Positions 437 through 5,159 of a stretch of DNA of 5,554 nt are shown here, one piece after another (position 1 is the stretch's first letter; each line of letters opens with the position of its first letter). Where the stretch lies: IMG/VR virus record IMGVR_UViG_2706794685_000013. The stretch is one strand, 5' to 3'. The position numbers and the translations under genes are program-made. Source of the DNA: a virus. Lineage: Duplodnaviria; Heunggongvirae; Uroviricota; Caudoviricetes. The notes under the pieces are model-generated. The model searched no databases. It had not been told where the DNA came from and saw only the letters and a program-made list of their open reading frames with translations.

Positions 437-497
437 CCTCACACAACCGCAAAATCGGTTGTCGGGATTGGCGTCTCGGATAACATCACAACGCATA

Positions 498-518
498 GCC
501 GCGTTTGCGGTTTTTTTT
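498..518 (+). terminator. Putative intrinsic terminator or attenuator in the leader: short GC stem (gccgc/gcggt, loop gttt) followed by a run of 8 T
   Basis: Hairpin plus T8 tract about 55-75 nt downstream of the predicted start site. The stem is short (4 GC pairs plus one GU), so strength is uncertain. Confidence 0.3.
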
Positions 519-678
519 GCGTTAAGCATTGCCACATTCGCATTATGGTGGGGCGTGCAGGGGCGGAGAAATCCGCGCCGGGTTTTGTGATGACCGGTTA
601 CGCCAACCCTGTACGTCTCACCACCTCCCTGATTGGCGTCAGAGGTGGTGATCATCCAATTAATTGGAGTCATCACAT

Positions 679-1239: not shown

Positions 1240-1248
1240 TGAATGCAA

Positions 1249-1280
1249 AACCCCGGATGATCACCGAGGTTAATTTTATC
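1249..1280 (+). terminator. Putative intrinsic terminator after the Rha-like gene (stem aaccccgg/ccgaggtt with one mismatch, loop atgatca, then aattttat)
   Basis: Imperfect 8-bp inverted repeat followed by a T-rich tract immediately after the stop codon. Confidence 0.3.
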
Positions 1281-1365
1281 GAGCGTGATTGCCGCTAATC
1301 GCCATCGCTCTGATTGAGCGTAAATCATTCAGGTTATTCAGTTCTTCCTTCTGCTCTCGCTGACG

Positions 1366-1536
1366 TCAATAAATCCCATCATTGCGATCAACCTCATCCT
1401 TAACCATTGATGCGAGCAGTTCTTCCAGTTTCTGCGCTGACAGCTTTACCTGGTGATCTTCAGCATCTTCCCGGGCTATTGTGGTTCGCGCAGTGGCTGA
1501 TTTTGCTGACATCACCACAGGGGGCAGACGGACCAT
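1366..1536 (-). CDS. Hypothetical small protein (56 aa, MVRLPPVVMSAKSATARTTIAREDAEDHQVKLSAQKLEELLASMVKDEVDRNDGIY)
   Basis: ATG at 1536-1534 with GGAGG 10 nt upstream (plus-strand cctcc 1547-1551). I do not recognise the family. The longer ORF in the six-frame track (to 1647) uses a TTG start and would run through the tfa 3' hairpin, so I prefer the shorter form. Confidence 0.3.
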   Translation of the reverse strand: MVRLPPVVMSAKSATARTTIAREDAEDHQVKLSAQKLEELLASMVKDEVDRNDGIY

Positions 1537-1600
1537 TGAACCATGGCCTCCGGAACAAATAAGGGCAAAAATAACAACCACTATCGAAAGCTCACAAACT

Positions 1601-1760
1601 AACCGCAGCACGTTCCTGCATACGACGTGTCTGCGGCATAATCCCAATGATTACTCCCTGACAGGATTTGCAGGCCACTCAATATCAGGTGCAGTTGATG
1701 TATCAACACGATTCAACAATACCCGATATTTATTCCATGCCTCCAGCAACGATCTTTCTT
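1601..1760. repeat. Direct repeat copy A (about 140-160 bp): 3' end of a tfa gene plus its 3' hairpin; partner is 2651-2800
   Basis: Long identical stretches shared with 2651-2800 (for example ctgcggcataatcccaatgattactccctgacagg and ccactcaatatcaggtgcagttgatgtatcaacacg), with scattered substitutions and one 1-nt indel. Confidence 0.85.
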
Positions 1761-1884
1761 CCTCCGTTGCGATTTCCAGATCTACAGCATCCTGCAGTGG
1801 CGCAATATACTCACTAAATTCCTGGATGTAGAACTGTGTGGTGACGGTCTTCCAGCCATTCGGCTCCTGCTGTATCGAAGCATA
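1651..1884 (-). pseudogene. tfa: Tail fibre assembly protein (lambda Tfa-like), C-terminal 77-codon fragment lacking a 5' portion and start codon
   Basis: Minus-strand translation ...[54 protein letters not shown] closely matches the lambda Tfa C-terminus as I recall it (...[55 protein letters not shown]). Stop TAA at 1653-1651; the frame is closed upstream by TAG at 1887-1885. Confidence 0.65.
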
Positions 1885-1988
1885 CTAGGCTATTTCAATA
1901 TCGCTATGCTGCGGCAGCATTTAACCCCTTGTAATTCATCGCCATAATTGATTTAATTCACAAATAAAACTATAACATGGTGAAATCA

Positions 1989-2645
1989 ATGAAAACAAAC
2001 ACAGATGATGGGGCTAAAATTTACACACCACTTACCCTAAAGCTTTATGACTGGTGGGTTTTGGGAGTATCAAATCGGCTTGCATGGGGATGTCCTACAA
2101 AGGAACACCTTCTTCCACACTTTCTGGAACATTTAGGTAACAACCATCTGGATATTGGTGTTGGAACTGGGTTTTACCTTACTCACGTACCTGAGAGTAG
2201 TCTGATATCTTTAATGGATTTGAACGAAGCTAGCCTGAACGCGGCATCTACAAGGGCTGGGGAATCAAAAATTAAACATAAAATTAGCCATGATGTTTTT
2301 GAACCTTATCCCGCGGCGTTACATGGTCAATTTGATTCCATTTCCATGTTTTACCTTCTTCACTGCCTGCCTGGAAATATATCTACAAAAAGCTGTGTAA
2401 TACGCAATGCGGCGCAGGCCTTAACTGACGATGGAACTCTATACGGAGCCACAATTCTTGGCGATGGAGTTGTGCACAATAGCTTCGGTCAAAAACTGAT
2501 GCGCATTTACAATCAGAAAGGCATCTTTTCAAACACAAAAGATTCCGAAGAAGGCTTAACACATATACTCTCAGAGCATTTCGAGAATGTTAAAACCAGG
2601 GTTCAAGGTACTGTAGTAATGTTTTCCGCTTCAGGGAAAAAATAG
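1989..2645 (+). CDS. Class I SAM-dependent methyltransferase, small-molecule/protein/RNA type, not a DNA methyltransferase (alternative start ATG 1977)
   Basis: Rossmann-fold motifs in order: motif I LDIGVGTG, acidic post-I LMDLNEASL, motif II FDSISMFYLL, motif III LTDDGTLYGATI. No DPPY/NPPY or PCQ/ENV DNA-methyltransferase motifs. GGTGA lies 5 nt upstream of ATG 1989. Visibly AT-rich relative to flanking phage genes. Confidence 0.8.
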   Translation: MKTNTDDGAKIYTPLTLKLYDWWVLGVSNRLAWGCPTKEHLLPHFLEHLGNNHLDIGVGTGFYLTHVPESSLISLMDLNEASLNAASTRAGESKIKHKISHDVFEPYPAALHGQFDSISMFYLLHCLPGNISTKSCVIRNAAQALTDDGTLYGATILGDGVVHNSFGQKLMRIYNQKGIFSNTKDSEEGLTHILSEHFENVKTRVQGTVVMFSASGKK

Positions 2646-2652
2646 CATCCAA

Positions 2653-2685
2653 CCGCAGCACGTTCTTGCTTAAGACGTGCTGCGG
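2653..2685. other. Perfect 11-bp inverted repeat (ccgcagcacgt / acgtgctgcgg) with an 11-nt loop; likely the tfa 3' hairpin or terminator. Imperfect counterpart at 1603-1636
   Basis: Reverse-complement symmetry read directly. On the minus strand it follows the tfa-fragment stop, on the plus strand it follows the methyltransferase stop. Confidence 0.4.
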
Positions 2686-2699
2686 CATAATCCCAATGA

Positions 2700-2789
2700 T
2701 TACTCCCTGACAGGGTTCGTAGGCCACTCAATATCAGGTGCAGTTGATGTATCAACACGGTTCAGCAACACCCGATACTTTTTCTAGGC
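2700..2789 (-). pseudogene. tfa: tfa 3'-end fragment (last 29 codons), fused in frame to the pin fragment; has an internal TAG where copy A has TGG (Trp)
   Basis: Minus-strand translation [28 protein letters not shown], collinear with copy A ([29 protein letters not shown]). Confidence 0.6.
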
Positions 2790-3026
2790 TTCCACCACCA
2801 GCACGACAAGATGCCGCATACAGTGCCCCAGTCAGTCCAGTTTTCAGACAACCAGTGCGTCACCTTTTTGAAGGCGCTTTAAAGCACGTTTTAATCCAGG
2901 TCGGCCTGTCCTTGTTCCGCTTAATTTATCTTCAAATATTTGTTCATATCCTGCACAAACAAGAGCGTTTCGTTGCAGGTCTGTATTCTGGTCATTTGTT
3001 GATACCCTTACATAGCCAATCAGCAC
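2790..3026 (-). pseudogene. pin: Serine invertase of the Pin/Gin/Hin/Cin family, N-terminal 79 codons only, with GTG start and two in-frame TGA stops
   Basis: Translation VLIGYVRVSTNDQNTDLQRNALVCAGYEQIFEDKLSGTRTGRPGLKRALKRLQKGDALVV*KLD*LGHCMRHLVVLVVE matches Pin/Gin (MLIGYVRVSTNDQNTDLQRNALVCAGCEQIFEDKLSGTRTDRPGLKRALKRLQKGDTLVVWKLDRLGRSMKHLISLVGE), including the catalytic Ser in VRVSTNDQ. Stops replace Trp61 (TGG to TGA) and Arg65 (CGA to TGA). GGGAG lies 6 nt upstream of the GTG. No resolvase C-terminus or DNA-binding domain follows. Confidence 0.8.
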
Positions 3027-3080
3027 GCTGAATCTCCCGTCCAAAAGCACAAATCATGCCATGCAGGCCAGAAACCGCCA

Positions 3081-3106
3081 TTATCTAAAACCTCGGTTTA
3101 CGAGAA
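3081..3106. other. Invertase crossover site (gix/pix/cix-like 26-bp imperfect palindrome), TTATCTAAAACCTCGGTTTACGAGAA
   Basis: Reverse complement TTCTCGTAAACCGAGGTTTTAGATAA matches the gix consensus TTCCTGTAAACCGAGGTTTTGGATAA (as recalled) at about 24 of 26 positions. It sits between the invertase start and the start of the tail-fibre variable cassette, as in Mu, P1 and e14. Confidence 0.7.
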
Positions 3107-4067
3107 CTCGGCACAAGCGGGGAGAAAATACCGTTACTCAGTACAGCGAATACCTGGACTAATCGACAAACATTCAGCGGTGGCCTTTCTGGTGAACTAT
3201 CCGGCAATGCTTCTACAGCTGCAAAATTAAAAACTGCCAGGAAAATAAGCAATGTGGCTTTTGATGGTTCCTCCGATATCACATTAAAAGCAAGTCATGT
3301 TGGTGCGTTTGCCTTAGGGAAAACAGGAAGCACCGTTGCGAATGATAAAGCAGTTGGATGGAACTGGAGTAGCGGAGCCTATAACGCAACNNNNNNNNNN
3401 NNNNNNNNNNNNNNNNNNNNNNNNNNNNNNNNNNNNNNNNNNNNNNNNNNNNNNNNNNNNNNNNNNNNNNNNNNNNNNNNNNNNNNNNNNNNNNNNNNNN
3501 NNNNNNNNNNNNNNNNNNNNNNNNNNNNNNNNNNNNNNNNNNNNNNNNNNNNNNNNNNNNNNNNNNNNNNNNNNNNNNNNNNNNNNNNNNNNNNNNNNNN
3601 NNNNNNNNNNNNNNNNNNNNNNNNNNNNNNNNNNNNNNNNNNNNNNNNNNNNNNNNNNNNNNNNNNNNNNNNNNNNNNNNNNNNNNNNNNNNNNNGGTAA
3701 TTCGATTGTATTGGGTGATAATGACACGGGCTTTAAACAAAAAGGCGATGGTAATCTGGATGTTTATGCTAATAACGTCCATGTTATGCGCTTTGTCTCC
3801 GGAAGCATTCAAAGTAATAAAACCATAAATATTACGGGACGTGTTAATCCCTCGGATTACGGTAACTTTGATTCCCGCTATGTGAGAGATGTCAGACTTG
3901 GCACACGAGTTGTTTAGACCATGAAGAAAGGCGTGATGTATGAAAAATCAGGCCATGTAATCACGGGGCTTGGTATTATCGGTGAAGTCGATGGTGATGA
4001 TCCGGCAGTATTCAGACCAATACAAAAGTTAATTAACGGAACATGGTATAACGTATCGCAGGTATAA
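3089..4067 (+). pseudogene. stf: Side tail fibre variable C-terminal cassette (Sv), promoterless and not joined to a constant region in this orientation; masked 3391-3695; in-frame TAG at 3915-3917
   Basis: Open frame from inside the crossover site: NLGLRELGTSGEKIPLLSTANTWTNRQTFSGGLSGELSGNASTAAKLKTARKISNVAFDGSSDITLKASHVGAFALGKTGSTVANDKAVGWNWSSGAYNA... After the gap: [122 protein letters not shown], which matches the lambda-type Stf C-terminus. The two flanks are in different frames if the N-run length is literal. Confidence 0.8.
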
Positions 4068-4069
4068 TC

Positions 4070-4603
4070 ATGCAGCATTTAAAAAACATTGTCGCAGGTA
4101 ATCCAAAAACCGTTGAACAATACCAGCTAACAAAGAATTTTGATGTTATCTGGTTATGGTCCGAAGATGGAAAAAATTGGCATGAGGAATTAAAAAACTT
4201 TCAGGAGGATACAATAAAACTGGCTTACACAGTTGAGGGAATAATTATTGCTATAGACAAGGATGTATCAGCAATTAATCCAGAAGGTTTAAGTGTCGTT
4301 GAGTTGCCTGATATTACAGCAAATCGCCGGGCTGATATTTCGGGCAACTGGATGTTCAAAGATGGTGCGGTGATAAAGCGAACTTATACCGAGGAAGAGC
4401 AAAGGCAACAAGCGGAAAATGAAAAGCAGAGCCTGCTGCAGCTCGTCAGGGATAAAACCCAGCTGTGGGACTCTCAGCTACAGCTGGGCATCATTTCCGA
4501 TGAGAATAAACAAAAATTAACCGAGTGGATGCTCTATGCGCAGAAGGTTGAATCCACAGACACCTCCAGCCTGCCAGTAACGTTTCCCGAACAACCAGAA
4601 TGA
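4070..4603 (+). CDS. tfa: Tail fibre assembly protein Tfa (lambda Tfa / Mu U family)
   Basis: 177-aa [25 protein letters not shown]...[32 protein letters not shown] is 2 nt after the tail-fibre stop (TAAtcATG), the usual stf-tfa coupling. Confidence 0.9.
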
Positions 4604-4606
4604 GAG

Positions 4607-4636
4607 AAGGCCCGCTATCGGGCCTTAATTTTTATT
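4607..4636. terminator. Bidirectional intrinsic terminator between the convergent tfa genes: stem aaggcccg / cgggcctt (8 bp, loop ctat) followed by aatttttatt
   Basis: Perfect 8-bp GC-rich hairpin with a T tract, placed between the stops of the two convergent tfa genes. Confidence 0.6.
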
Positions 4637-5159
4637 CAGGCTTTTGTGGCCATTCAGGATTTGCCGTATCCACACGGCTGACCAGAACACTGTAGCGTTC
4701 CCATGCTTCCAGTCGTGTGCGTTCCTCGTCTGTTGCCATATTCAGCCTGACAGCTCGTTCCAGCGGCTGGATGACTGATTCAGCTTCGGAAAGCAATGCG
4801 GCCTTTTGTGATTCGGCCTGTTGTTGCAGTTCCTGTTCTGTATATTCCCTCTTTACTACTTTACCATCCAGAAACATCCATTTTCCGTTATTGTCTGCGT
4901 GACGATTTGCCGTAATATCAGGAACTTCAACTATGCTTAGCCCTTCAGGATTAATAGTTGAAACGTCTTTACTGACAGCAACGATGATGTTGTTCTCATC
5001 GTAAGCAATTTTTATGGTGTCTGGCTGAAAATTCTTTTGTTCCTCATACCAGTTTTTGCCATCTTCGCAAAAGAGCCATACCACGCCCGCTTTTTTAGTT
5101 AGCTGGTATTGTTCCGGTGTTTTCGGATTCCCGGCCTTAATATTTTTCAGGTGCATCAT
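4632..5159 (-). CDS. tfa: Tail fibre assembly protein Tfa, alternative copy on the opposite strand (Mu U-prime type)
   Basis: 175-aa [33 protein letters not shown]...[35 protein letters not shown] at 5159-5157 is 1 nt after the upstream fibre stop, with GGGGAG upstream. The longer ORF in the track uses an upstream TTG and is not preferred. Confidence 0.9.

Follow-up and report, generated by a model that had tools for sequence, protein, structure and literature searches.

Why does an intact methyltransferase gene lie between two incomplete 3′ ends of the tail fibre assembly gene tfa, and did these ends arise by duplication or from different genes? The question is raised by a 5,554-nucleotide (nt) stretch of a Caudoviricetes virus (IMG/VR record IMGVR_UViG_2706794685_000013; the window below means this whole stretch), which is an Escherichia coli prophage remnant, from a lambdoid prophage that integrated at ompW; the tfa ends lie at the right end of this prophage. 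The original prediction had placed two tfa 3′ ends here, differing mostly by synonymous changes, and had read them as copies that diverged while functional, before they became fragments, and that came from two different tail-fibre modules rather than from a recent local duplication. Our analysis leads us to conclude, with a probability of about 0.85, that the two ends are non-functional scars of successive tail-fibre module replacements, copy B being the stump of the prophage's own tfa and copy A the relic of an older allele. The features on which the argument turns are as follows.

1601..1650, minus strand: 3′ flank of copy A, with the hairpin usual after lambda-type tfa (repeat family D4; -24.1 kcal/mol, z = -3.1).
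1651..1884, minus strand: tfa fragment A, the 3′ 77 codons plus the stop TAA (1651-1653), with a translation ending in ANPVRE and a Caudo_TAP match.
1977..2645, plus strand: intact open reading frame (ORF) for a 222-amino-acid (aa) class I S-adenosylmethionine (SAM)-dependent methyltransferase, a ybcY-like moron gene convergent with copy B.
2651..2699, minus strand: 3′ flank of copy B, with the tfa hairpin (repeat family D4; -28.5 kcal/mol, z = -5.4).
2700..2797, minus strand: tfa fragment B, the last ~32 codons plus the stop TAA (2700-2702), with an acquired in-frame TAG at 2784-2786 (codon table).
2798..3026, minus strand: pin/gin-type DNA invertase pseudogene, the N-terminal ~76 codons with a GTG start (3024-3026) and two in-frame TGA codons (Pfam Resolvase N-terminal domain).

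A repeat search and the codon table bore out the presence, positions and common minus-strand orientation of the two ends. They form direct repeats, 1631-1748 versus 2680-2797 (118 nt, 90% identity) and 1601-1629 versus 2651-2679 (90%), with a 1-nt indel between the two blocks, and each copy comprises ~98 coding nt (~32 tfa codons) and a stop codon, followed by ~48 nt of 3′ flank with the hairpin. Over 2700-2789 (30 codons including the stop, numbered backwards from it) nine codons differ between A and B. Six of these differences are silent: GCA/GCC at -30, AAA/AAG at -27, GTA/GTG at -24, TTG/CTG at -22, and AAT/AAC at both -21 and -6. Two others change the amino acid, AAT/AAA at -28 (Asn to Lys) and GCA/ACG at -7 (Ala to Thr, by two nucleotide changes), and the ninth, TGG/TAG at -29, is the premature stop in B. 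All six differences named in the original prediction are thus present, but three more in the same 30 codons (GCA/GCC, AAT/AAA and TGG/TAG) had been overlooked; its count of five silent differences out of six is exact for the last 26 sense codons and does not hold for the whole range, so that the observation is partly confirmed.

The ratio of nonsynonymous to synonymous divergence (dN/dS), which had been proposed as a check, showed the silent excess to be significant. For the 27 sense codons after the TAG, Nei-Gojobori counts were six synonymous and two nonsynonymous differences (pS 0.31, pN 0.032, dN/dS 0.083; one-sided Fisher p = 0.0017), distributed 2/0/6 over the three codon positions. Comparison of A with the intact tfa of phage PhiR26_1 over 52 homologous codons gave 10.5 synonymous and 4.5 nonsynonymous differences (dN/dS 0.11, p = 8e-5), distributed 3/1/11. 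With 90% identity between the copies and these distributions, neither the near-identity nor the equal rates by codon position that would have spoken for a single recent lineage were seen. Moreover, the six differences originally named already separate A-type fragments from intact B-type tfa genes (PhiR26_1 and strain W46).

Using lambda tfa as outgroup and two intact B genes as references for polarisation, we assigned seven silent and three replacement codon changes (Tyr/His, Arg/Thr, Asn/Lys) to the A branch, and seven silent among 11 nucleotide changes exceeds the 24-30% silent expected under neutrality (binomial p = 0.006-0.02). Thr at codon -7 is a derived state of the B side: Ala stands there in lambda and in the intact B gene of W46, and functional B genes are polymorphic at this site, with Thr, Ala or Val. 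Variation among 103 present-day A fragments, by contrast, amounts to eight silent changes, 20 replacements and one stop, plus 1-nt and 7-nt deletions in some copies; among 49 intact B genes it is 12 silent and five replacement changes in the last 52 codons. The divergence between A and B differs from the polymorphism within A (Fisher p = 0.009-0.02). Copy A therefore varies in a manner indistinguishable from neutrality, frameshifts included, and copy B carries its acquired TAG, as befits pseudogene relics. A silent-biased divergence between the copies set against neutral variation within A indicates that the divergence predates the fragmentation of both, and the dN/dS values, the polarised A branch and the neutral variation within A together support the view that the two diverged as functional genes.

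Judged from their reading frames, both copies are pseudogene fragments, and the labels given by the Prokaryotic Genome Annotation Pipeline (PGAP) in near-identical genomes agree. Copy A matches the Pfam profile Caudo_TAP (PF02413; E = 3.6e-25, 89 bits compared to a cut-off of 22.1 bits) over profile positions 75-130 of 131 only, and recognisable Tfa is confined to its last ~55 codons (~1654-1830). It has an in-frame TAG upstream at 1882-1884, where phage relatives have TGG, and its first 17-25 codons are without counterpart in any intact Tfa or protein. Its equivalent in sequence type 131 (ST131) is labelled by PGAP 'tail fiber assembly protein, incomplete, missing N-terminus'. Copy B, ~32 codons with an internal TAG, is below the length for a profile scan, and its Tfa membership was established through nucleotide identity to the end of an intact 194-aa Tfa. 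Neither copy, hence, is a full-length functional Tfa.

We searched for an intact parent of copy A by tblastn against 50,697 phage records, in a 5.8-billion-protein database, with A-specific exact and degenerate DNA patterns in IMG/VR and in one scan of GTDB species genomes; none was found in any of these, the matches being the same 5′-truncated fragment with two exceptions. Full-coverage matches in the protein database were all ≤117 aa. An A-specific 33-mer occurred in 108 IMG/VR viral contigs, in all but one with an ORF of ≤110 codons and in ~100 with the A fragment beside the methyltransferase, while looser patterns and the species-genome scan yielded only further A fragments, one of them in E. 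albertii. The 5′ truncation of A has the same junction in every genome examined. The exceptional ORF is in L097, an IMGVR_UViG contig in which a side tail fibre gene (stf) is fused in frame to A after ...ASKGRV in a tfa-sense ORF of 688 codons; a methyltransferase probe found no match beside this fusion, which either arose by deletion or hints at where A's unmatched 5′ codons came from. The other exception, L119 (JBJEFM010000006.1, labelled as a Bacillus sp. metagenome-assembled genome), is a 4.3-kb contig with an E. coli phage-type A fragment, probably owing to binning contamination.

Copy B, unlike A, has intact relatives. With its 3′ flank, it is identical to the end of the intact 194-aa tfa of PhiR26_1 except for TGG>TAG, and the flank is identical to that of intact phage tfa genes. 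TGG is retained at this site in two related contigs that have the same pin junction, so the TAG arose after truncation, and it is the only change that the copy in the window has gained since. Among cassette-bearing IMG/VR contigs, the gene at the B position is intact in 49, reduced to a 42-codon remnant in 22 and to a 27-codon remnant of the window type in eight. At the same trpA-ompW site in strain W46, a sister prophage has intact stf and tfa genes, and after them come the methyltransferase, fragment A, a DUF4376 fragment (described below) and an ompW remnant. The pin pseudogene that abuts copy B in the window has 95% identity with P88-like and Mu-like phage invertases, and its PGAP label is 'recombinase family protein, missing C-terminus'. 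When the junction was mapped with a P88-type invertase, the invertase homology (down to ~2798) met the tfa homology at a common GGAA microhomology in the junction alignment; the PhiR68_2 invertase was rejected as a reference, as it belongs to a different (PinQ/R-type) family. The junction and the intact relatives point to copy B as what an illegitimate join left of the resident prophage's own tfa.

The cassette as a whole recurs elsewhere. Its gene order and orientation are those of tfaD-ybcY-tfaX in the E. coli K-12 prophage DLP12, that is, tfa, a convergent SAM methyltransferase and then a 5′-truncated tfa on the tfa strand, and sequence continuity over both methyltransferase-tfa junctions is evident from a single 1121-nt blastn alignment (window 1674-2794, 97.1%), which includes the 5′ junction of the downstream fragment. 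The two differ in that the methyltransferase is frameshifted in K-12 but intact in the window; in that tfaD keeps 438 nt and copy B 98 nt; in the 3′ end of tfaX, which is followed by appY-ompT where copy A is followed by the DUF4376 fragment; and in chromosomal site, the DLP12 locus versus ompW. The same junction was found in five inspected genomes or phages (K-12 DLP12, W46, E. albertii, PhiR68_2 and phage 204576), with 99.3-99.5% identity over window 1340-2794/2797 for W46, phage 204576 and E. albertii. Among active lambdoid phages, PhiR26_1, ev243 and 2G7b (Nesevirus and relatives) have lom, stf and tfa in this order, then a convergent methyltransferase and a tfa fragment, with 97.5-98% identity over the cassette. 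PhiR26_1 has an stf of 3078 nt and an intact tfa (194 aa) at the B position, whereas the B copy of ev243 and 2G7b is a 42-codon remnant behind a different gene. In all three, fragment A is cut after ...GTTGATACATCA, and so ends 15 codons early and without the hairpin; beyond it come a hydrolase gene, ompT and the integrase gene. Lambda tfa (orf-194) shares ~90% protein identity with both copies over its last 52 codons and has a homologous hairpin 3′ of the stop, but it is a single intact tfa followed by ea47, with neither methyltransferase nor second fragment. Recurrence of the cassette with the same junction, along with the unmatched 5′ codons of A, favours two different tail-fibre modules over a recent local duplication, and the original interpretation is supported.

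The methyltransferase matches Pfam Methyltransf_12, Methyltransf_23, Methyltransf_25 and Methyltransf_11, and is annotated as such in ST131 and in two phages (2G7b, ev243); the label in PhiR26_1 is 'putative YbcY'. Its stop codon is 5 nt beyond the copy B flank. A promoter and terminator scan around it gave nothing above chance, and a literature search for ybcY, tfaX and tfaD returned incidental mentions only. A 45-codon ORF (2590-2727, minus strand) overlaps the methyltransferase 3′ end and the copy B hairpin; named 'hypothetical protein' or 'nucleocapsid protein' in RefSeq, it is very likely a spurious call.

Within the repeat, a 38-nt core, CGTGTTGATACATCAACTGCACCTGATATTGAGTGGCC, is identical in A, B and lambda. 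As outlined in PMC9608196 (citing North et al. 2019), the Tfa chaperone has a conserved trimerisation part, its C-terminal helical domain, and a variable N-terminal fibre-binding domain. The repeat encodes this conserved helical domain, which would explain why the two alleles differ mostly at silent sites. Fragment A, with its one 5′ junction, has at least six 3′ ends, ending in ANPVRE, TSPAE, EEPDTM, VAPQ or WPEL before the stop or in the truncated form joined to hydrolase/ompT, and all of them switch inside or directly past the conserved core (L010-L125; window 1654-1710). The end found in the window (...ANPVRE, hairpin and DUF4376 fragment) is the commonest in IMG/VR (~68 of the 108 contigs), and the A copies of K-12 and PhiR68_2 share another type, with the switch at window 1674. 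The conserved tfa end is a natural place for module exchange. It is conceivable, if rather doubtful, that the ~150-nt unit of conserved tfa 3′ end plus hairpin acts as a portable homology handle for the methyltransferase moron. If so, a methyltransferase between two such units could enter or leave any lambda-type tail-fibre region by homologous recombination, and this would explain the constant 5′ junction of A alongside at least six 3′ ends and downstream neighbourhoods.

Other histories for the two ends were weighed against these data. Direct repeats that exactly bracket an inserted-looking gene are the layout expected of duplication on insertion, and one tfa 3′ end might have been duplicated locally and recently, for example as the methyltransferase inserted, with both copies then decaying randomly. 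We find this barely credible. A target-site or insertion duplication leaves near-identical copies with an even spread over codon positions, whereas these are 10% diverged with a 2/0/6 distribution and a dN/dS of 0.08; the A/B differences recur in phages, K-12 and E. albertii; B has nucleotide-identical counterparts among intact genes elsewhere; and ~25 upstream codons of A are unrelated to the B-type gene. The lineage-wide differences and the codon-position bias already refute a recent event. Were the duplication ancient, in one phage, with B functional and acquiring silent changes and A dead from the start and drifting neutrally, A would be fragmentary in every genome examined and an intact A-type gene would not be found, as is the case. 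Such an origin is nevertheless highly unlikely: by our calculation it predicts a dN/dS of ~0.5 and ~18 replacements per 10.5 silent changes over 52 codons, compared to the 4.5 observed, and the A branch itself holds most of the silent changes (seven codons versus three replacements), while true neutral drift in A produced eight silent to 21 non-silent changes. As to whether A is a still working small gene, an ATG-initiated ORF of 88-101 codons starting MLPQHSDIEIAW... does span the fragment in most phage and prophage copies, and PGAP-type pipelines call a protein, which would be the Tfa C-terminal helical domain alone, and purifying selection on it would account for the silent bias. We rejected such a mini-gene, an extremely unlikely reading, on the neutral polymorphism among the 103 copies and their frameshifting deletions; besides, many copies have a swapped or truncated 3′ end, and the TAG at 1882-1884 cuts the ORF in the window.

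A distinct possibility, at somewhat less than even odds, is that copy A is a chimera kept tfa-like by repeated homologous recombination in the 3′ core, which refines rather than excludes our explanation. The clusters of differences (codons -31 to -21, and -7/-6 plus the flank) would then come from different donors, and the silent bias would have been imported from functional genes instead of building up along one A lineage. Consistent with this, one 5′ junction of A is combined with at least six 3′ ends that switch within or just past the core GTTGATACATCA...GAGTGGCC, K-12 and PhiR68_2 copies switch at window 1674, an A-type state (GCA or GTA) occurs singly in some intact tfa genes, and the W46 B gene, itself intact, combines GCA AAT of the A type at -7/-6 with a B-type flank. 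Conversely, the end seen in the window, being the commonest, could be ancestral and the others later replacements, and a donor allele with the full A-specific block was not found in our searches. A recent A-to-B gene conversion in W46 was considered and rejected, since lambda also has Ala at -7 and a retained ancestral polymorphism is at least as likely.

We therefore favour successive replacement of tail-fibre modules. With conservation of the cassette, the intact relatives of B, the codon statistics and the neutral decay of A demonstrated, the order and mechanism of the recombination events are what we infer. A stf-tfa(B)-methyltransferase block would have replaced the tail-fibre genes of a phage with a different tfa allele, the 3′ part of which would have stayed downstream as copy A, the older scar. 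Copy A and the methyltransferase would then have travelled as a fixed cassette among lambdoid phages and prophages, the one known as tfaD-ybcY-tfaX in DLP12. The A/B divergence would have arisen while both alleles were working genes under purifying selection. In the lineage of the window, an illegitimate join at GGAA may have fused a truncated pin and an invertible fibre segment to the last ~32 codons of tfa(B), the pin-linked invertible fibre module displacing stf-tfa(B). A layer older still may be present in the DUF4376-type fragment below A, and the likely order of the relics, from oldest to newest, is the DUF4376-type fragment, tfa A, tfa B and the current invertible segment.

Several points weigh against this history. 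No intact parent of A was found in our searches, and the second functional tfa is deduced from the substitution pattern rather than seen as a gene. As nothing matches the first ~17-25 codons of A, its tfa boundary is approximate. The numbers are small (eight differences in 27 codons and 15 in 52), and each distinct variant was counted as one event, with IMG/VR assembly errors possible and the intact B genes of the same contigs as the internal control. Given at least six alternative 3′ ends of A, its last 15 codons in the window may stem from a third tfa allele.

The remainder of the window provides the prophage setting, with these further features.

443-517, plus strand: isrK small RNA (Rfam match at gathering score, 72 bits), just upstream of ash/rha-type genes.
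541-628, plus strand: C4 antisense RNA (Rfam match at gathering score, 76 bits), likewise just upstream of ash/rha-type genes.
1276..1554, minus strand: DUF4376/tail-fibre-type gene, a 3′ fragment with an internal stop (PGAP label mapped from ST131 locus L001; translation).
4070..4603, plus strand: intact tfa gene (ORF of 177 aa, full-length Caudo_TAP match) in the invertible tail-fibre segment, the current module.
4632..5159, minus strand: second intact tfa gene (ORF of 175 aa, full-length Caudo_TAP match), the inverted partner in the invertible segment.

Many ST131-type chromosomes share positions 1240-3390 at 99.5% identity, and their counterpart region adjoins trpA and a truncated ompW gene and is labelled by PGAP as a string of pseudogenes. 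The gene order in the window is isrK/C4 RNAs, ash, rha, the DUF4376-type fragment (minus strand), tfa A (minus), methyltransferase (plus), tfa B (minus) and truncated pin (minus), beyond which are an stf C-terminus (stf-C), the two intact tfa genes inverted to each other and the start of a second stf-C. We take the isrK/C4 stretch to resemble a P1/P7-style immunity or antirepressor control region. Runs of N at 891-1145 and 3391-3695 hide part of rha and part of the tail-fibre C-terminus, and leave the tfa copies untouched. For the DUF4376-type fragment a Pfam scan gave no match above threshold, and its tail-fibre affinity rests on the PGAP label and on tblastn matches, which are labelled side tail fibre or tail fibre proteins in SerU-LTIIb, Rac-SA53 and phiP27; lying downstream of copy A, it is probably a further relic.

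As in Gin/Pin/Cin invertible segments (Mu, e14 and P1 type), a Pin-type invertase lies beside stf-C/tfa and an inverted tfa′/stf-C′, the tfa gene at 4632..5159 forming inverted repeat I1 with 4070-4228. Unlike in those systems, the invertase is a truncated pseudogene fused to tfa B, and the window holds one putative crossover site. The latter is a 26-nt sequence, TTATCTAAAACCTCGGTTTACGAGAA, at 3081-3106 (plus strand), between the dead pin gene and the stf C-terminus, which we presume to be a Gin/Pin-type site (gix/pix) from its appearance; no second copy of it was found in the window, even allowing three mismatches. Since pin is truncated, the segment can invert only with an invertase supplied in trans. 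The plus-strand tail-fibre C-terminus is split by an in-frame TAG at 3915-3917 (...RLGTRVV before the stop and TMKKGVMYEK... after it), which makes this alternative fibre tip an apparent pseudogene. From ~3902 rightwards, the window has no match to ST131 locus L001, indicating that the content of the invertible segment differs between strains.

Altogether, the two tfa 3′ ends are an ordinary prophage mosaic scar, already annotated in E. coli K-12 (DLP12), and no new kind of element; there is no evidence of function for them, and their value is mainly for careful annotation, with little beyond. They offer a clean worked example of pseudogenisation dated by substitution pattern, silent-biased between the copies versus neutral within one of them. 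The right end of the prophage late operon emerges as a stack of relics from successive tail-fibre module swaps, in which a ybcY-like methyltransferase has long been carried with a fossil piece of tfa among the lambdoid phages of E. coli and E. albertii.

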